NCBI GenBank assembly: GCA_964467155.1
Contig: CAYXNZ010000004.1
Coordinates: 533 to 64,532, forward strand
DNA: 64,000 nt
DNA from: an uncultured Gammaproteobacteria bacterium
GTDB taxonomy: Bacteria; Patescibacteriota; Patescibacteriia; Patescibacteriales; GWC2-42-12
Direction of reading: 5' to 3'
Positions 3,135 through 57,400 of the stretch are shown piece by piece. Every line of letters starts with the position of its first letter. Within the stretch, counting starts at the first letter, position 1. The position numbers and the translations under genes were made by a program. The notes under the pieces were generated by a model, which ran no database searches, was not told where the DNA came from, and saw only the letters and a list, made by a program, of their open reading frames with translations.

Positions 3135-4646
3135 ATGAAAAGAGCAAGAATATTATTGCTTAGCCTTTTGTTAATTGCAATTGGCGTATCGGCAGTTGAT
3201 TTATCAGCTCAAGCTGGTATTCTTGATTTTTTTTATAAAACTAAAGATGTATTAACTGTAGCGGGCAATCAAGTTTTATTAAATGGTAATAAAATATTAT
3301 TGAGTGGCGTAGCAGTTGGTGATCCACATTCCAGATTAACTAATGATCAAAGAACAATTGACGATTACGAAGTGATAAGCAAGGAGTGGAAAGCTAACGT
3401 TGTCCGATTATCTGTCCATCCTGGCGTTTGGCGTCGAGATGAAAAAAGAGGCAAAAGTATGCTGGAGGAAGAGGTTAAGGCCGCACGTGATAACGGTCTT
3501 TTTGTTATTATTGATTGGCATGTGATCGGTAATCCAAACGGTTGGTATAAGCCTTGTCCTTGGGGTGAATACCATTACTATTCTTATAGTAGTAATTTCA
3601 ATATTGCTAAAGATTTTTGGAAGTATATCGCTCTAGAATATCGTAGTGATCGTGGTGTTATGTTTGAATTATGGAATGAGCCAGCTGATGACAAAGATCA
3701 GAAGTGGGAATACATACAAGATTACATGCAAAGATTAACAGATATTATAAAAAGTAATGGTGCAGAAAATATTATTATTGGTCCAGGTGTGTGGTGGACA
3801 TACGACTTAAGGGGAGTAAAGAATAAACCACTCTCAGGAGACAATATTGCTTATGCTTGGCATAATTACCCAACCAATAATAGTCGTTATATATCTTGGG
3901 ATTTGGCGATGGATGATTTATATAAATATTATCCAATCTTTGTAACAGAGTGGGGCTACACAGAAGAACCAGGGAATATGTATTATTCAAATGTAGATAA
4001 TTATAGTGAAAATTTAAAAAAATATTTATTAGAAAAAGGATTGCATTTTACTGCCTGGTGTTGGCATGCCACCTGGAAGCCAACAATGTTTAAAGCAAAT
4101 TGGGTAGATTTGAATGAGTATGGTGGATTTGTAAAAAAATTATTAGCTGATATTGAGAATGGCTGGGCATATTTAAATTTGGAAGAGACTAAACCGCTTG
4201 ATTGTGATACGCAAAAGCGGATAACAGATTTTATAAAAAATGGAGTTGATAAAAATTCTATTTATATCGGAGAAGGGGAGAGAAAAGCAGTGGTCTTTTC
4301 TTTTCAGCAAGCATTCGGTCGATTACCTGAGAGTGATACTGATCATGAAGATATAAAACTTATTGCTAATGGACATTGGCCAAGTCAAAGAAGTACCGTT
4401 GCTGAAGCAAAGGCACAAAATACTTTTCGTTATATTTATAAGCGAGAATCAAACATGGATTACCCTTGTGATAATGCTGCTATAACAGTCATGGCTTATG
4501 GTTTGAGGCAAAGAGCTGAGAACCGTAATTTAGAAAGCGAAGAACGAGGTTTAATAATTTTTAAAAGTTTATATAATCATTTGCCAGATTCAACTGAAGA
4601 TTGGAATATTTTACAAGCGATAACTTATTCAGGTGCATCAAGGTAG
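3135..4646 (+). CDS. Secreted glycoside hydrolase family 5 (cellulase-family) protein with an extra ~130-aa C-terminal domain
   Basis: Signal peptide present. GH5 acid/base motif 'FELWNEP' and nucleophile-region 'FVTEWG' are both present. The C-terminal domain is shared with the 1337-aa protein at 54414-58427. Confidence 0.75.
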   Translation: MKRARILLLSLLLIAIGVSAVDLSAQAGILDFFYKTKDVLTVAGNQVLLNGNKILLSGVAVGDPHSRLTNDQRTIDDYEVISKEWKANVVRLSVHPGVWRRDEKRGKSMLEEEVKAARDNGLFVIIDWHVIGNPNGWYKPCPWGEYHYYSYSSNFNIAKDFWKYIALEYRSDRGVMFELWNEPADDKDQKWEYIQDYMQRLTDIIKSNGAENIIIGPGVWWTYDLRGVKNKPLSGDNIAYAWHNYPTNNSRYISWDLAMDDLYKYYPIFVTEWGYTEEPGNMYYSNVDNYSENLKKYLLEKGLHFTAWCWHATWKPTMFKANWVDLNEYGGFVKKLLADIENGWAYLNLEETKPLDCDTQKRITDFIKNGVDKNSIYIGEGERKAVVFSFQQAFGRLPESDTDHEDIKLIANGHWPSQRSTVAEAKAQNTFRYIYKRESNMDYPCDNAAITVMAYGLRQRAENRNLESEERGLIIFKSLYNHLPDSTEDWNILQAITYSGASR

Positions 4647-12323: not shown

Positions 12324-13616
12324 ATGAAAAAAATAATTCAGTTAAAATTAAAAATATTAGCAAAATTGATATTAGCTAAATATAAGCCAGATGTTATTGG
12401 TGTTACTGGCAGTGTTGGTAAAACCAGTGCTAAGGAAGCGATTTTTGCAGTTTTATCTGTTCAATATAAAGTCAGAAGGAATGTTAAAAATTATAATAAT
12501 GAAATCGGTTTACCTTTAACAATTATTGGTGTTAATTCTCCTGGTCGCTCAATAGTCGGTTGGATAAAACTTTTTGCAAAGGCTTTGTTTTTAATTTTAT
12601 TTAAAGATAAAAATTATCCGGAGATATTAGTTTTAGAGATGGGTGTTGATCGTCCCGGCGATATGGCATATTTACAAACTATTGTTAAACCAAGAATCGG
12701 AGTAATCACCTTAATTGGTCCAGTACATTTAGAATTTTTTGGTTCAATTGAAAAAATAAAAGAAGAAAAAACAAATTTAATAAAAAAATTACCTAAAAAT
12801 GGTTGGGCGATAATAAATTATGATGACGAGAAATTAACTAGTGTGAAAGAGGAATTGGAAAATCAAGTTTTAACTTATGGTTTTAACGAGAAAGCTGATA
12901 TTCAAGCCAAAGAAATGACCTTTAGTTTTAATGATAATGAGGAAAAATTAAGAGGAGTGAGTTTTAAAATAAAATATAACGGTTCAACTGTTCCAGTATT
13001 ATTACCCGAGGTATTAGGACAAGCTGTTGTTTATGCTGCTTTAGCTGGTGTGGCTGCTGGAATTGTTTATAATATTAATTCAATTAAGATTTCGCAGGCA
13101 TTAGGTAGTTTTAAATCACCAAATGGTAGGTTAAAATTGTTAAATGGTATAAAAAATACTATTATCATTGACGACACATATAATTCTTCACCACAATCAG
13201 CTAAAGTTGCTTTAGAGATTTTTAAAAAGATTCCGATAGAGACAAGCGGTCGGCGGATTGCGGTTCTGGGTGATATGCTTGAATTAGGTGATTACAGCGA
13301 AAAAGCACATCAAGAAATCGGACAATTGGTTTTTAAAACAAAAGTTGATAAATTATATTTAGTTGGTGAACGAGCGAGGGATATTGCTCGTGGCGCTAAA
13401 AAGGCAGGCATGTTGAAAGATAACATTTTTCATTTTAGCAATAGCAATGAAGCTAAAAAGTTTATTCAAGAAAGGATTAAACAAAACGACATAATATTAA
13501 TTAAAGGTTCGCAGGGTATGCGAATGGAAAAAATTGTTAAAGAAATAATGGCTGAACCAAATAGAGCAGAGGAATTATTAGTTAGGCAAGGTAAAGAATG
13601 GACAGACAAGAATTAA
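12324..13616 (+). CDS. murF: UDP-MurNAc-tripeptide--D-Ala-D-Ala ligase MurF
   Basis: P-loop 'GVTGSVGKTS', 'NYNNEIGLP' and 'DDTYNSSP'. The dcw-cluster context also fits. Confidence 0.8.
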   Translation: MKKIIQLKLKILAKLILAKYKPDVIGVTGSVGKTSAKEAIFAVLSVQYKVRRNVKNYNNEIGLPLTIIGVNSPGRSIVGWIKLFAKALFLILFKDKNYPEILVLEMGVDRPGDMAYLQTIVKPRIGVITLIGPVHLEFFGSIEKIKEEKTNLIKKLPKNGWAIINYDDEKLTSVKEELENQVLTYGFNEKADIQAKEMTFSFNDNEEKLRGVSFKIKYNGSTVPVLLPEVLGQAVVYAALAGVAAGIVYNINSIKISQALGSFKSPNGRLKLLNGIKNTIIIDDTYNSSPQSAKVALEIFKKIPIETSGRRIAVLGDMLELGDYSEKAHQEIGQLVFKTKVDKLYLVGERARDIARGAKKAGMLKDNIFHFSNSNEAKKFIQERIKQNDIILIKGSQGMRMEKIVKEIMAEPNRAEELLVRQGKEWTDKN

Positions 13617-13647
13617 GAGTTATGAATTACGAATTAGAAATAAAAAA

Positions 13648-13675
13648 ATCTCGGAAAATTCCGAGATTTTTTATT
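13648..13675 (+). terminator. Intrinsic terminator after murF
   Basis: ATCTCGG-AAAATT-CCGAGAT hairpin followed by TTTTTT. Confidence 0.7.
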
Positions 13676-13680
13676 TTATT

Positions 13681-13880
13681 GTACCGCTACGGGGCCCGCC
13701 TACGCCTACGGCTTCGGACGGATAAAAATCGAACCCCATATTCATTATTAACTATTCATTCGTAATTCGTATTTTATTTTGTACCGCTACGGGGCCCGCC
13801 TACGCCTACGGCTTCGGACGGATAAAAATCGAACCCCATATTCATTATTAACTATTCATTCGTAATTCGTATTTTATTTT
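13681..13880. repeat. Two perfect 100-bp tandem repeats, each holding a tRNA-Glu 3'-end copy split by a 32-nt G+C-rich insert
   Basis: 13681-13780 is identical to 13781-13880 by direct reading. Each unit carries GGGGTTCGATT + 32 nt + CCCCGTAGCGGTAC when read in the tRNA orientation. Confidence 0.9.
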
Positions 13881-13881
13881 G

Positions 13882-13953
13882 TACCGCTACGGGGAATCGA
13901 ACCCCGGTTACCAGGATGAGAACCTGGCGTCCTAACCACTAGACGATAGCGGC
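13882..13953 (-). tRNA. tRNA-Glu (anticodon CUC)
   Basis: Hand-folded 72-nt cloverleaf. Acceptor GCCGCTA/TAGCGGT (G1-U72), D arm GTCT..GGAC, anticodon stem CCAGG/CCTGG with loop TTCTCAT, T arm CGGGG-TTCGATT-CCCCG. No CCA is encoded. Confidence 0.85.
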
Positions 13954-14190
13954 AAATTTATTTTAATATTAGCTATTTAAAAATACTTTTCAACTTGTTT
14001 TCCACAGTTTTTTATACAATCATTTATGAATAGTATCAACTTTTCTTCCTCTTGACAATTTATGACGTAAAACTTATTTTTAAACTACTATAAATAGGGA
14101 AACCTATTTTTTAGTGCCTGTTAATTTTTTTTGACAGCGCATGGGGATTGAGAGTACCCGTTTATCTTTTCTGATAGGCGGGTGCTTTTT

Positions 14191-15144
14191 TTATGAAAGA
14201 ACTGTACCAACAAAATTATTGTTTCCTCTCATAAAATCTTCAGCTGACAAAACTTTTTTCCCTTCAATTTGAATTTTTTTTATTATTAATGAATCAATTC
14301 CACATTGAACAGCTAAACCACTATTGTAAATAAAAGTTTTGCCTGATTTATAGGTGTTTATTTCTATTGTTTTCTGTTGCACTTCTAGTATTTTAACTTG
14401 TTTGCCTTGATGCCATGTCCAAGCAGATGGCCATAAATACATTGCTCTGGTAAATCTTTCAATTTCTTTAGCTGACTTGTTCCATTCAATTAAGCCATCT
14501 GATTTTTTAATTTTACCAATATAATCAGTCTTTGTTTTGTCCTGAGGGATTAATTTAAGTTTGCCTTCAGTATATTTTTTTAAAGAATCTATGACAAGGT
14601 TAGCGCTTTTGTCTGACAATTTATCATATAAAGTTTCGGCAGTTTCATTATTATTTAATTTTACTTTAAGTTGAGCAATTATCGGGCCAGTATCTAATCC
14701 CTCATCCATTTTTATAAGAGTTAGTCCGGAATATTGATCACCGTTCATTATTGGAGCTTGAATGACTCCTGCGCCTCGGTATCTTGGAAGAAGCGAGCCA
14801 TGAAGATTTACGCAACCAAACTTTGGAATTTCTAAAATACTTTTTGGAATAATTTGAGCATAAGCAATCACAACAATTATGTCTGGATTAATTTGAATTA
14901 GTTCATTTTTTATTGTTTCAATTTTTTTTGGTTGTAAAATTTTAATTTCATGTTCTAAGGCGACTTGTTTAATTGGTGAAGCAGTGATAATTTGTTTACG
15001 TCCAACTGGCATATCTGGTTGACTGATTACTAAAGCTACGTCAAATTCTTTGTCATCAATAAGTGCACGCAAAGACGACACACCAAAATCAGGTGTGCCG
15101 ATAAAGACAACTTTAGTCGATTTATAATATTTCATGCTCTTCAA
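14191..15144 (-). CDS. fmt: Methionyl-tRNA formyltransferase
   Basis: 'VVFIGTPDFG', 'NLHGSLLPRYRGA' and the def-fmt gene pair. The real start may be the ATG at 15135. Confidence 0.9.
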   Translation of the reverse strand: MKSMKYYKSTKVVFIGTPDFGVSSLRALIDDKEFDVALVISQPDMPVGRKQIITASPIKQVALEHEIKILQPKKIETIKNELIQINPDIIVVIAYAQIIPKSILEIPKFGCVNLHGSLLPRYRGAGVIQAPIMNGDQYSGLTLIKMDEGLDTGPIIAQLKVKLNNNETAETLYDKLSDKSANLVIDSLKKYTEGKLKLIPQDKTKTDYIGKIKKSDGLIEWNKSAKEIERFTRAMYLWPSAWTWHQGKQVKILEVQQKTIEINTYKSGKTFIYNSGLAVQCGIDSLIIKKIQIEGKKVLSAEDFMRGNNNFVGTVLS

Positions 15145-51674: not shown

Positions 51675-52883
51675 TTAAATAATTATTCCTCCACCAAGCA
51701 ATTCGTCTTTTTTGTAAAAAACAACACTTTGTCCAGGAGTTATAGCTCTTTGTGCTTTTTCGAATTTTACGCTTAGCTTGTCTTTTGTTTGATTAATCGT
51801 ACACTTATTCGCTTTGTGACCGTAACGTATCTTAGCCGAGCAATTAAAGGGCATTTTGGGAGTTTTACCACCTATCCAATTAATGTTTTTACAATTTAAT
51901 TGATTGCTAAAGAGTGCTTTGTGATTTACTTCGTTTGTGACGTAGAGAGTGTTGGTTTTGTAATCAGTCTTAACAACATAATAAGGTCCAGTTCCACCAA
52001 GCTCAATCCCCTTTCTTTGACCAATAGTATAGAGAGGTAAACCTTGGTGCGTGCCGATAATTTTATTCGCTGTCATTCTGGAAGGATCCGCCGACTGGCG
52101 GAGACTGATAGAATCTTTTCTTTTTTTAGAAGTGCTGTGAGATTCTACCCGCTTCGTCGGAGCTTCAGCTAGCCTCGCTGAGTCTAAGCGGGCGAGGCGA
52201 GTCGCTTCGTTGGCACTTCGCTCCAGAATGACAATTGGACCAGTTTTTAATTTTATATTTTTTTTCAAAAAATTATTATGATCTCCTTCCAAAAAACAGA
52301 TATCTTGACTCTCAGATTTTTCACAAGGCAATTTATGCTCTCTGGCTATTTTTTTTATCTCAGCCTTTGTATATCTGGCTAGTGGAAAAATTATTTTAGA
52401 TAATTGAGCCTGAGTTAAATTATACAAAAAATAACTTTGATCCTTACTCTTATCTTTTGCCTGAAATAATTTATATTTTGTAGTTTGGAATTTGTAATTT
52501 GTAATTTCTCGCTGCAAGCGAGTATAGTGTCCAGTTGCCAAGTAATTAGCTCCTAGTATTTTTATATATTTTAATAATTCCCCAAACTTTATTGTTTTGT
52601 TGCATTCTACACACGGATTAGGTGTCAGTCCCCTACTGTAGGCAGAGCAAAAATATTGTATAACATTTTTATTAAATTTTTGATAGGCGTTTATAGAATA
52701 AAATTTAACTTTTAATTTTTGGCATATTTTACGAGCGGATACTTCAGAAGCTGATTGTTTTTCCTCAAGACGTAAAAATAAACCAATAACTTCATAGCCT
52801 TGATTTTTGAGTGTTAGCAAGGCAACAGCGGAATCTACCCCACCAGAGATTGCAACTATTATTTTTTCTCTTTTTTTAGCCAT
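51675..52883 (-). CDS. mnmA: tRNA 2-thiouridine synthase MnmA carrying a ~54-aa in-frame insertion
   Basis: PP-loop 'VAISGGVDSAV' and 'THQGLPLYTIGQRKG'. A G+C-rich insert lies between 'TGPIV' and 'NKIIGTHQGL'. Confidence 0.85.
   Translation of the reverse strand: MAKKREKIIVAISGGVDSAVALLTLKNQGYEVIGLFLRLEEKQSASEVSARKICQKLKVKFYSINAYQKFNKNVIQYFCSAYSRGLTPNPCVECNKTIKFGELLKYIKILGANYLATGHYTRLQREITNYKFQTTKYKLFQAKDKSKDQSYFLYNLTQAQLSKIIFPLARYTKAEIKKIAREHKLPCEKSESQDICFLEGDHNNFLKKNIKLKTGPIVILERSANEATRLARLDSARLAEAPTKRVESHSTSKKRKDSISLRQSADPSRMTANKIIGTHQGLPLYTIGQRKGIELGGTGPYYVVKTDYKTNTLYVTNEVNHKALFSNQLNCKNINWIGGKTPKMPFNCSAKIRYGHKANKCTINQTKDKLSVKFEKAQRAITPGQSVVFYKKDELLGGGIII
52071..52233. mobile_element. 163-bp MITE-like palindromic element inside mnmA
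   Basis: 12-bp perfect terminal inverted repeats: TGTCATTCTGGA at 52071-52082 and TCCAGAATGACA at 52222-52233. Internal hairpins are present. A hand count of 52141-52200 gives 37/60 G+C. Confidence 0.55.
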
Positions 52884-54413: not shown

Positions 54414-57400
54414 CTATTTTATTGATCCGCTATAAGCTATAGCTCGGACAACGTCCCATGTGGTAGTGCTAACTGGATTGCAACCAAAGATTGTTTTAAA
54501 GGCTTGAATAGCTGTTCTTTCGCTATCTAGGTTCCTGATATCAGGTCTCAAACCATAGGCGACCATTGTTATCGCAGCATTGTCGTTGGCATTATCCATA
54601 TTAGCATCTCTTTGATAGACTTTCTTAAATTCTTCTTTTGCTTTATTTTCAGCTGGCTGGTTTGCTTCAGATGGCCAACGTCCATTGGCAATTTTGATGA
54701 CGTCTTCCCATTCAGTTTGAGTGGTTGGCAGTTTGCCAAAAGATGTTTTGTAGGAGTTCATTACACCGGCTCTCTCACCTGCTCCTAGCTTGGCGGTCGT
54801 TTCCGTACCGTAAACAATAAAGTTAGTCATGGAATAAGCTTGGTTCAGAGTTAAACCAGAATTTTTAACTAACGAAAGAGTATATTTATTGCTACCTGCA
54901 AGTTCATTTGCGATATTTCTAATTCCTTTAATATTATTTAGTATCAAGCTTACGTCCCCTTTATAAGCAAAACCGGCTTCGTTAATAATCTTATCAAGCT
55001 GTGTTGCTCTATAATTCAATTCAACACCGAGAACTTCCACTTGTTCCTCTGGTTTAGTAGGGGTAGTAACAATTTCTTTTATCGGTTCAACACCAAGAAC
55101 TTCCACTTGTTCCTCTGGTTTAGTAGGGGTAGTAACGGTTTCTTTTATCGGTGTAGTCTGCGATTGTTGAGGAAGCGTGACGCCACCAAAAGATGTCGTT
55201 GTTTGTGTATAGGTGGCAAATTTGGTGAAATGCTTTGTCCAAATTACTAGATCCGATCCATTATCAATTTTACAATCTTCTTTAGATCCTGTTAAATAAG
55301 CATCAACGGTCGCTTGATCATCTGCCGTACAAGTATTGGTAATTTCAGTAAATTCAGTCCCTGTTCTTACATATCCTACTCTCTTGCCGGTTTGTCCTGG
55401 GAGTAATAATCTAACCGCTTTATCAAAAGACAATTTAGCGCCGGTAAAACCAACCTCTATAGCTATACTAGAAGTCTTAGTTTGTCCTAAAGTTTTCGGC
55501 AGAGTCACGGTCGTAACAGTAGGCGCCGCAATAATTCCATTCCATGTATCATCCGCGCTAGTGACTTTAGTAGAAGCCGGAATCGCCACAGTGGCGTTAT
55601 TAGCATTAGCTGATGTGATATTGATTTCCGGTAATGTTCCTGTCCCCTCGGAAATAAACAAACTCACGTCAATTTTCGGATTAGTTGTACCGCTACTGAT
55701 TGTAACCGTTGTTGCCTGAGTCTGATTAGTAATTACAACTTGTGGGGCATCATTAGTTACAGTAGCGTTGCCACTATTGTCTGGAACAACCGTACTATTA
55801 GACAAAGTAGTTTTTTCTGTGTTGATAAACCAAGGGTCATAAGTAATATAATCGCTTATTAACTCTCCCGGACCGTTTTCGTCTCCCCAATAATTGTTTT
55901 TCGCATCAAGCTGAACAGCAGACAGATTAACCACGTCACCATTAATCGCTATAGTATTTGCTTTCAATATACCAGTCGCTCCTGATCGAATAATGATAGC
56001 ACTGTGATAAGTGGCAGCATCAGCGACTAAATCATTCTTGTTTACGCTAATACTACCGCCAGTAATGGTCATATCAACGCCGGAGCCAGAACCAATACTC
56101 GCAAAACGAACACCGTATGTATCGTTTTCTGTAGTCTGAGCGATCACGCTGATGTCAGTATTTTCTACCACTAGATTTCCACCACCACCTTGGAGATTAA
56201 TACCACTCTTAACGTTCTTTATAGTGGAATCCCTGACAGTGAGATGGTTGACATAGCCGTTTATAGCGACATACAAACCGTTCTTAAAAATGGAGTTTTC
56301 AATGATTACATTAGAGCAGGAAGTGAAATTCACTCCATTCACAGAAGAGCCTTCCATGAATCTGCCATTTCCGTCAAAAGTACTGTTCTTGACGGTTACA
56401 CCGTTTACATTTTTCAAAAGAAGAAGGGCTGTACCACTGTCAGTATCCGCTAAAAAATTAATATTTTCTATTCGCCAGTTGTCGTCAGCGCCAGGAAGAT
56501 CGATTGAAAGCGTTCCTTGAATCGTCGGAAGAGGATGCCCATCTCCGTCAACAGCTCCCACAAAATTTAGTTGTTTACCAGAGACGGTAGGATTTTCATC
56601 ATAAATTCCAGCAGCGACATAAACAGTTCCCCCCAGCACGACAGCGTCAATGCCAAGAGCTATTGTAGAAAATTTTTCATTAAAATTACCCTTGGCTGGA
56701 TGAGCTGCAATAATACTGCTGTTAGCATCCACAAAAACGTGGCTGCGGTTACCAGCTAAAGCAGCACAAGCCGCGGCATTTTTAACATTATCTGTTGGAT
56801 AGGAGGCATCTACTGTACGGCGATCAAGTATATAAGCGCCATTATTAGAATTTGAAAGCGCAATTACACTTTGCTGATAATCTGGAGCGTAATAAGCCGT
56901 ATTCCAAACAATATCCCATTCATTATGGCTTATTAAACCAGAAACGGTTGAAGTCCAGGAATTGCCGGTCGTAGTGTGGGTATTAGCATCATCCTGGCTT
57001 GAAGTGTAATGCATTATTCCACCTTTAGTATCAAAAATAACATTATCAGTTATAGAAGCGGAATTTCCTGGTCTTACCACAATACCATTCCTAACTCCAT
57101 ATATTGTATTTCCCTTTATCGTTGCAGAACCTGCTTGAAGAGTTATACCTCTAGTGGTCCAAGTTTTCATCTCACCTAATAAAGTTTCATCAGCATATAT
57201 AGTATTGCCAGAAATAGTTACATTAGAAGCATTAATAAGAATCAAAGCTCCACTAGTTTCACTCCCAGTAACAGATCCAGCCTGACTAAAAGGAGCTAAA
57301 CTGGTTGTAATATTAAAATTCTCAATCGTGACATTATCCGCGGTTATGTTAAACACAGGAGTATCTAAGGTAGCGGAAATAATAGTCGCAGACGCATCCG

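Follow-up and report, generated by a model that had tools for sequence, protein, structure and literature searches.

Tandem repeats in which a tRNA fragment with a split T loop follows the intact tRNA gene have been known from Escherichia coli's tyrT operon for decades, and their origin has so far remained unexplained. Here we analyze a locus of this build in an uncultured member of the Patescibacteriota. It lies in a stretch of 64,000 nucleotides (nt) of contig CAYXNZ010000004.1 (assembly GCA_964467155.1, positions 533 to 64,532), hereafter called the window, where two 100-bp units stand directly 3′ of a tRNA-Glu(CUC) gene. With a probability of roughly 0.55, we read these units as RtT-type tRNA-linked repeats, each being the decayed 3′ remnant (T arm and acceptor 3′ strand) of a disabled second tRNA-Glu copy from a GIY-YIG-type cassette locus, later duplicated by slippage and most likely neutral debris.

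In E. coli K-12, the tyrT–tyrV region (L028; NC_000913.3, 1286704–1287262) holds a 178-bp repeat in 3.1 copies, with four hits of 133–138 bits to the RtT family (RF00391, rttR). Each unit consists of AAGGTTCGA, a 68-nt insert of 69% GC and ATCCTTCCCCCACCACCA, that is, the 3′ end of tRNA-Tyr with a split T loop. Release of RtT RNA from the tyrT transcript has been reported (PMC3318445, citing Bosl and Kersten 1991; bioRxiv 10.1101/2024.07.17.603846). Both the RtT repeats and the window repeats are tandem units directly 3′ of a tRNA gene, on the same strand and apparently in the same transcript; in both, a unit comprises the T-stem 5′ strand with the start of the T loop, a GC-rich insert, and then what remains of the T loop together with the T-stem 3′ strand and acceptor 3′ strand. 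They differ in period (178 versus 100 bp), insert length (68 versus 32 nt) and split position (58/59 versus 60/61), share no sequence similarity, and the RtT model has no match in the window at E ≤ 10. In addition, RtT encodes the CCA end, overlaps the tiny tpr open reading frame (ORF) and has no known GIY-YIG link; it is conserved across enterobacteria, whereas the window unit is limited to one species-level lineage. By its layout, the window unit is of RtT type in architecture and not a member of RF00391.

Other described systems resemble parts of the locus. Free-standing homing-endonuclease genes leave displaced gene fragments behind, as do GIY-YIG and LAGLIDADG ORFs of fungal mitochondria (e.g., at Allomyces atp6) and SegB in the tRNA cluster of phage T4. 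AT-rich genomes harbor GC-rich palindromic elements, including the GC clusters of yeast mitochondria, the double-hairpin elements of Allomyces and the Rickettsia palindromic elements. The 3′ ends of tRNA genes are classic integration sites. Finally, group I introns have been reported in tRNA genes of Patescibacteria at site 35/36 (PMC13011429).

Anatomy of the tRNA-Glu Locus

ARAGORN and Rfam agree on tRNA-Glu(CUC) as the sole tRNA of the window. A preliminary description of the locus, made from the letters alone, had placed two base-perfect 100-bp units right 3′ of this gene; units 13681–13780 and 13781–13880 are indeed base-for-base identical, and Tandem Repeats Finder returns a period of 100 bp with 2.2 copies at 13672–13894. 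In tRNA sense, a unit runs from a 43-nt AT-rich spacer through GGGGTTCGATT and the 32-nt TTTATCCGTCCGAAGCCGTAGGCGTAGGCGGG to CCCCGTAGCGGTAC, with the following coordinates:

13881–13953, minus strand: intact tRNA-Glu(CUC), without encoded CCA, G1–U72 (ARAGORN; Rfam tRNA, 65 bits)
13838–13880, minus strand: unit 1 spacer, 43 nt, AT-rich, tRNA 3′ trailer, contains GAATTACGAAT
13827–13837, minus strand: unit 1 GGGGTTCGATT, copy of tRNA nt 50–60 (T-stem 5′ strand and T loop)
13795–13826, minus strand: unit 1 GC-rich 32-nt insert (TTTA and a hairpin of 28 nt in which one T is bulged), separating T-loop nt 60 from nt 61
13781–13794, minus strand: unit 1 CCCCGTAGCGGTAC, copy of tRNA nt 61–74 (T-stem 3′ strand, acceptor 3′ strand, discriminator)
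13681–13780, minus strand: unit 2, exact copy of unit 1 (spacer 13738–13780, nt 50–60 copy 13727–13737, insert 13695–13726, nt 61–74 copy 13681–13694)

The composition given earlier (nt ~50–60, a 32-nt insert, nt 61–74 and 43 nt of AT-rich sequence) agrees with these coordinates and lies far above chance: the 14-mer of nt 61–74 occurs three times against 0.03 expected, the 11-mer of nt 50–60 has three exact occurrences, and the 32-mer insert occurs twice against an expectation of 0. Searching the 64 kb for the insert and for the missing tRNA 5′ half, as had been proposed, finds the insert confined to the two units and no second occurrence of the 5′ half; the unit fragment lacks tRNA nt 1–49. 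The likeness to the true tRNA end continues ~11 nt beyond it (ACAAAATAAAATA versus ACAATAAAATA after the last unit).

GIY-YIG Cassettes Beside tRNA-Glu in Relatives

Three relatives at ~58% fmt identity to the window organism (L018, L020 and L022) provide the most informative comparison. L020 has the plain arrangement without a cassette, representing an empty site, and its flanks are 87–89% identical to those of L018. In L018 and L022, fmt is followed by the intact tRNA-Glu(CUC), a GIY-YIG ORF of 90 amino acids (aa), a second copy of tRNA-Glu and, last, the native trailer with its terminator. The ORF (Pfam E = 2.6e-12) starts at the first base after the tRNA and reads into nt 1–22 of the second copy, its stop codon TAG being nt 20–22, with the first insert directly after. 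The second copy is full-length, with one insert of 52 or 86 nt at nt 22/23 and another of 50 or 28 nt within the T loop at 55/56, and its nt 1–22 derive from a different allele. In L022, these nucleotides mismatch the copy's own 3′ acceptor strand at two of seven pairs, and the second copy is therefore not a working tRNA.

Comparable arrangements are found at tRNA-Glu(UUC) genes. L027 carries nt 1–22, an insert, a GIY-YIG gene, a 5′ partial copy and the intact tRNA; L024 has two GIY-YIG genes and 5′ partial copies with inserts at 12/13, 22/23 and 35/36. Downstream of its intact tRNA, L024 also has a 3′ partial copy whose T loop holds an insert; the trailer after this copy resembles that of the intact gene. 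Judged by its layout, this 3′ partial copy is the closest match to the window arrangement. The cassette loci lie at the following positions:

L018, 1704–2130
L022, 2548–2998
L024, 1418–2600
L027, 100–591

The GIY-YIG genes of L018 and L022 are 94.1% identical at the nucleotide level, compared with 84–87% for def, fmt and murF. Since the cassette has diverged less than its flanks and does not occur in L020, which is nearer to L018, it looks mobile. Five of the 12 closest GIY-YIG homologues end in PSSSG or PSSNG, corresponding to translated tRNA-Glu nt 2–22; a sixth (P0243) reads through the same PPSS, and several cluster representatives do likewise. From these recurrent ends, fusion of the ORF to tRNA-Glu appears to be a stable property of this GIY-YIG family. 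More distant homologues (P0280, P0294, P0281 and P0290) possess tails such as GVEQSGSSRGS or GPVVQRIE, which look like translated 5′ halves of other tRNAs, e.g., tRNA-fMet, and suggest the same arrangement at other tRNA genes.

The encoded protein is a ~90-aa catalytic domain alone, and is probably a homing-type enzyme. The cassette shares with homing-endonuclease genes a small GIY-YIG ORF beside a conserved gene, presence/absence polymorphism between close relatives, an ORF more conserved than its flanks, and a working copy next to a disabled or partial one. However, it has no recognisable DNA-binding domain, its ORF reads into the tRNA 5′ end, and GC hairpins break up the disabled copy, which is not simply truncated; the window itself lacks the ORF. 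A literature search for GIY-YIG proteins in connection with tRNA-Glu or the candidate phyla radiation returned nothing relevant.

Taken together, these loci suggest the following route to the window arrangement. In the relatives, the putative nuclease gene begins directly behind the intact tRNA-Glu or is located shortly upstream of it, and reads into nt 1–22 of a second copy that carries GC-rich hairpins in the D arm, anticodon loop and T loop. The ancestral locus of the window lineage may have been of this cassette type, as in L018 or in the downstream part of L024, with a disabled tRNA-Glu copy once separating the working tRNA-Glu(CUC) gene from the trailer and terminator native to it. Loss of the nuclease gene and of nt 1–49 of the disabled copy would leave the tRNA, a 43-nt trailer, the hairpin-split nt 50–74 and the terminator, which would be the one-unit allele of the four other assemblies described below. 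Slippage or unequal exchange between the 16-nt repeats CCCCGTAGCGGTACAA could then have produced the two-unit allele of the window strain. We infer that the units themselves are without function.

One further identity was considered and rejected. The fragments are not split or trans-spliced tRNA halves, as each fragment has an intact tRNA-Glu next to it and the second copy's acceptor strands contain mismatches.

Sister Species and the Integrase Alternative

The same locus was compared in two closer species. Species B (L005; fmt 78% identical) has the same promoter, a nearly identical tRNA and the terminator directly after it, with no unit. In species C (L009, L010 and L017; fmt 73% and MurF 74% identical), the intact tRNA-Glu(CUC) has at least two exact tandem units of 120 bp upstream of it. 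Each comprises nt 1–12, a 30-nt GC-rich insert, nt 13–22, a 32-nt GC-rich insert, nt 23–38 and a leader, the last being the same AT-rich leader that precedes the intact gene. Two sister species bear mirror-image versions of one phenomenon, and a third bears none. The 5′-part arrays of species C occupy these positions:

L017, 8990–9223, minus strand
L009, 4190–4263
L010, 1195–1344

One species C assembly has an additional 53-nt GC insert ahead of nt 1, and contigs break within the array. Rfam at permissive thresholds matched only the tRNA on the species C locus, and no close fmt relative was found in representative genomes. In L012 (MurF 66% identical) no tRNA lies behind murF; a hairpin, TGGCGGACGAAGACATCCGCCAGCAAC, occurs there twice (4306–4332 and 4387–4413), flanking another GC-rich hairpin.

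These comparisons bear on whether the units are the collapsed attachment (att) site relic of a tyrosine or serine integrase element that used a T-loop sublocation of tRNA-Glu and was later deleted. The window has in common with att duplications a direct repeat of the tRNA 3′ segment beside an intact gene, here reaching from the T arm to beyond the tRNA end. Nevertheless, such an origin is quite improbable. There is no integrase within ~4 kb on either side of the units and no cargo; the relatives' loci contain no integrase either, and their filled sites carry GIY-YIG genes instead. Moreover, the 32-nt insert interrupts the identity block, and species C duplicates the tRNA 5′ part, which is not a product of 3′-end integration. 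The preliminary description, which had noted the lack of integrase and cargo correctly (the neighbors are all housekeeping genes and syntenic with relatives), had weighed a mobile-element relic at the tRNA gene; this idea survives in altered form, with the relatives' GIY-YIG gene standing between the intact and the interrupted tRNA-Glu, while its integrase component finds no counterpart. The split T loop recurs in the relatives' interrupted tRNA-Glu copies and is not an att core. The related genomes to which it had looked for a comparison give a mixed answer, with one unit in four strains, none in species B and 5′-part arrays in species C.

Copy Number Among Near-Identical Strains

Other strains were found by an exact-protein look-up of MurF, which yielded four contigs from four samples (L001–L004). 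These assemblies of the same organism have one unit each, with flanks 99.9–100% identical to the window and a murF–fmt gap of 475 bp versus 575 bp in the window. The longest internal repeat of the one-unit allele is 16 nt, and its two 16-nt direct repeats CCCCGTAGCGGTACAA lie 100 nt apart, equal to the unit period. Because the period matches the spacing of these repeats, the copies are exact and the copy number varies among near-identical genomes, the second unit probably arose by slippage or unequal exchange between them; recent slippage had been among the explanations first listed, and it is supported. A reverse event would excise the unit cleanly.

An assembly artefact as the source of the second unit is highly improbable, even though the four other assemblies have one unit and one Joint Genome Institute contig ends within the tRNA T arm. 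As no repeat in the one-unit allele exceeds 16 nt, a de Bruijn assembler has no graph cycle to expand. Conversely, two of the one-unit contigs were assembled at k = 141, at which a two-unit array would not collapse. The units also match exactly and stay in register with the 16-nt direct repeat that flanks them, the pattern that a genuine slippage product should show. On these assembly grounds, we take the difference of two units versus one as a real strain polymorphism.

GC-Rich Hairpin Inserts

The inserts of different species share 46 same-strand 8-mers, compared with 3.8 ± 2.5 in shuffles, and form one family. They are 21–140 nt long, usually start with (C/T)CCGCC and end with GGCGGG, GGCAGG or GACGGG, and grow by nested modules, as seen between L018 and L022. 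The insert at 22/23 in these two relatives is homologous to that of species C; both begin with CCCGCCTTG and finish with GAGGCAGG. Every insert site (12/13, 22/23, 35/36, 55/56 or 56/57, and 60/61) is within a loop or at the edge of one, and we saw no target-site duplication at the inserts. The T-loop insert of the window has ends of the family type, TCCG(T)CC...GGCGGG, but a different interior.

A GC-rich element of ~160 bp is present in frame in mnmA (window 52073–52234; ORF 51675–52883, minus strand). It possesses terminal inverted repeats GTCATTCTGGA...TCCAGAATGAC, adds ~54 aa between the HUP and PRC-barrel domains, and shares the motifs CCCGCTTCG and GAGGCGAG with the relatives' tRNA-Glu inserts. 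The element resembles Rickettsia palindromic elements. Like the GC-rich palindromic elements of other AT-rich genomes, the inserts are short GC-rich hairpins in a genome of ~31% GC and constitute a modular family common to several species, with one member in mnmA. Unlike those elements, the window insert occurs within the 64 kb only in the units, and termini of the CCCGCC...GGCGGG type are the sole common feature.

The inserts share with the reported group I introns (PMC13011429) the phylum and the interruption of tRNA genes, and one relative (L024) has an insert at 35/36. However, they are hairpins of 21–140 nt with no ribozyme match in Rfam, located in partial or mismatched copies beside an intact gene. 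A tRNA intron, whether group I or bulge-helix-bulge, was likewise rejected for the window insert, given its length of 32 nt, the lack of an Rfam ribozyme match and a fragment without nt 1–49.

The 26-nt insert core has no match in species-representative genomes or viral contigs, the spacer has none in viral contigs, and when the units were compared with phages and plasmids by BLAST, all matches were AT-rich and due to chance. Rfam at permissive thresholds reported nothing beyond tRNA, including at the loci with the 27-mer described below, and we found nothing relevant in the literature on GC-rich palindromic elements in Patescibacteria.

Weighing a Cassette Origin

Several observations speak against deriving the window units from a GIY-YIG cassette. 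The descent of the fragment from such a cassette is suggested by architecture alone, and tblastn finds no GIY-YIG homologue in the window, species B or species C. The window insert has no 8-mer in common with those of Patescibacteria relatives; its hairpin sits at 60/61, the T-loop inserts of L018 and L022 at 55/56; and its 22-nt core is identical to a 27-mer hairpin, CCCGCCGAAGCCGTAGGCGTAGGCGGG, of unrelated organisms. The spacer looks like native trailer and not like foreign DNA, because its 11-mer GAATTACGAAT, which occurs exactly three times in the 64 kb (in both spacers and once inverted, just past the terminator behind murF), recurs in the murF flank, and because species B has a comparable extended palindrome around the terminator. 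Derivation of the spacer from the 5′ coding region of a GIY-YIG gene was tried and rejected: 27 of 41 positions are collinear with one homologue, at p = 0.17 in shuffles. Finally, insert sites in loops only, together with exact tandem copies in both nuclease-less species, could point to a role at the RNA level, and the closest analogue, E. coli RtT, reportedly yields a processed RNA (PMC3318445).

The 27-mer CCCGCCGAAGCCGTAGGCGTAGGCGGG is found in three unrelated metagenome contexts that are not Patescibacteria-like, at the following sites:

L013, 1557–1583
L015, 7385–7451
L014, 14357–14383
L016, 4094–4120 and 5410–5436

Its contexts include a tandem of three similar hairpins upstream of greA and a position beside an ECF sigma/FecR pair; in L016 it lies within a strongly folding repeat of ~140 nt that is present twice. 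The consensus 27-mer folds at −17 kcal/mol (z = −3.3). The window insert, with one bulge, folds at −11.4 kcal/mol (z = −1.7), a stability that 9 of 200 shuffles also reach.

Part of this evidence would fit a purely local history, in which the T arm, tRNA end and trailer were duplicated by slippage, the dead copy gained an independently mobile GC hairpin, and a second slippage gave two units with no mobile nuclease involved. The spacer's resemblance to native trailer, the direct repeat running ~11 nt past the tRNA end, the absence of a nuclease gene from the window's clade and the solitary occurrence of the hairpin core in unrelated genomes all agree with such a course; the related GC-rich element in frame in mnmA further indicates that these elements insert on their own. 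We nevertheless regard it as unlikely. Partial tRNA-Glu copies interrupted by hairpins exist in at least five other lineages, and at unreduced loci they adjoin a GIY-YIG ORF fused to the tRNA 5′ end. Independent accidents at one tRNA species in so many lineages are difficult to envisage without a common driver, and descent from a cassette locus remains our preferred reading.

Transcription Signals and a Possible RNA-Level Role

The signals around the locus are as follows:

13643–13672, bidirectional: intrinsic terminator with a 13-bp stem, common to murF (plus strand) and the tRNA-plus-units transcript (minus strand); the hairpin also appears in the fold
13965–13993, minus strand: promoter-like site TTGAAA, 16–17 nt, TAATAT, ~12 nt upstream of the tRNA; sequence conserved in sister species
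13621–13647, plus strand: murF 3′ flank, 7-nt periodic GAATTAn, inverted partner of the unit spacer (23–27 nt, 74–78% complementary)

No terminator was found between the tRNA and the units. As the units lie between the tRNA and the only terminator, they would belong to the tRNA 3′ trailer and should be co-transcribed with the tRNA.

Such co-transcription would fit a functional RNA similar to RtT. The tRNA-like ends of this RNA would direct maturation enzymes, and the released hairpin RNA or competitor strand could serve as a small RNA, engage tRNA-binding factors as a decoy or regulate how tRNA-Glu matures, with copy number tuning the dose. The architecture matches that of RtT, reportedly released from the tyrT transcript; the inserts occupy loop positions only; the D-arm inserts of species C together form a junction that the D stem closes (z = −3.6 to −4.0); and both reduced species retain exact tandem copies. 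Still, we consider a function of this kind doubtful. The window unit folds no better than its shuffles do (z = −0.7 and −0.25), the insert alone gives z = −1.7, as above, and the fold of the whole transcript (z = −2.3) is owed mainly to the tRNA and the terminator. Rfam at permissive thresholds matched only the tRNA at the window locus (13560–14200, E ≤ 10). In addition, the units do not occur in the closest sister species and are restricted to a single species-level lineage, recognition by RNase P or RNase Z would require a 5′ acceptor strand that the fragment does not have, and species C retains a quite different part of the tRNA.

The neighborhood consists of rsmH–ftsL–ftsI–murF on one side, convergent with tRNA-Glu, fmt and def; a Memo-like gene is also present. 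The gene order around tRNA-Glu is the same as in relatives, and the best protein matches of the window are to named Patescibacteria or Parcubacteria.

Three side observations concern this region and the rest of the window. At 14052–14195 (plus strand), a promoter-like TTGACA, 17 nt, TATTTT is followed by an element of ~110 nt with three hairpins, ending in a terminator-like stem and a T run. Species B and C conserve this element, with a few compensatory changes, and it is a candidate small RNA antisense to the fmt–tRNA spacer. L004 (ERZ27315522) is identical to the window from murF through the tRNA promoter and breaks at window position ~14084, continuing with ~490 nt of unrelated DNA and a PadR-like ORF in place of fmt; the breakpoint falls at the promoter of the candidate small RNA. 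Elsewhere, at 55020–55152, Tandem Repeats Finder detects a 66-bp tandem repeat with two copies, 95% matching.

Implications

The units are best read as debris of a recurrent, apparently undescribed interplay in Patescibacteria that involves small GIY-YIG genes, tRNA-Glu genes and modular GC hairpins; we found no description of the units or of the association of GIY-YIG genes, tRNA-Glu and hairpins in the literature searched. More speculatively, and with the balance tilted against it, these loci may represent an undescribed class of selfish elements in Patescibacteria. A domain-only GIY-YIG gene would home beside tRNA genes (tRNA-Glu and, judging from the ORF tails, possibly tRNA-fMet and others), leaving one tRNA copy intact and reading into a second one that is deliberately broken at its loops by modular GC hairpins, so that tRNA-processing enzymes cannot cut the mRNA of the element or re-cleavage is blocked. 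Arrays of the window type would be footprints of such elements and may persist through immunity to re-invasion, the tRNA end being separated from its native trailer; the same process might also account for the origin of RtT in E. coli.

The window and its relatives form an apparent graded series, from the empty site through a nuclease with a full-length, hairpin-riddled copy and partial copies to nuclease-free tandem arrays. Owing to this series, an origin of split-T-loop repeats by turnover of a tRNA-targeting GIY-YIG cassette is now testable. The reduced, AT-rich genomes of Patescibacteria hold a modular family of GC-rich insertion hairpins that enter tRNA copies and even protein genes such as mnmA, a pattern that parallels organelle genomes and affects tRNA and gene annotation in Patescibacteria.

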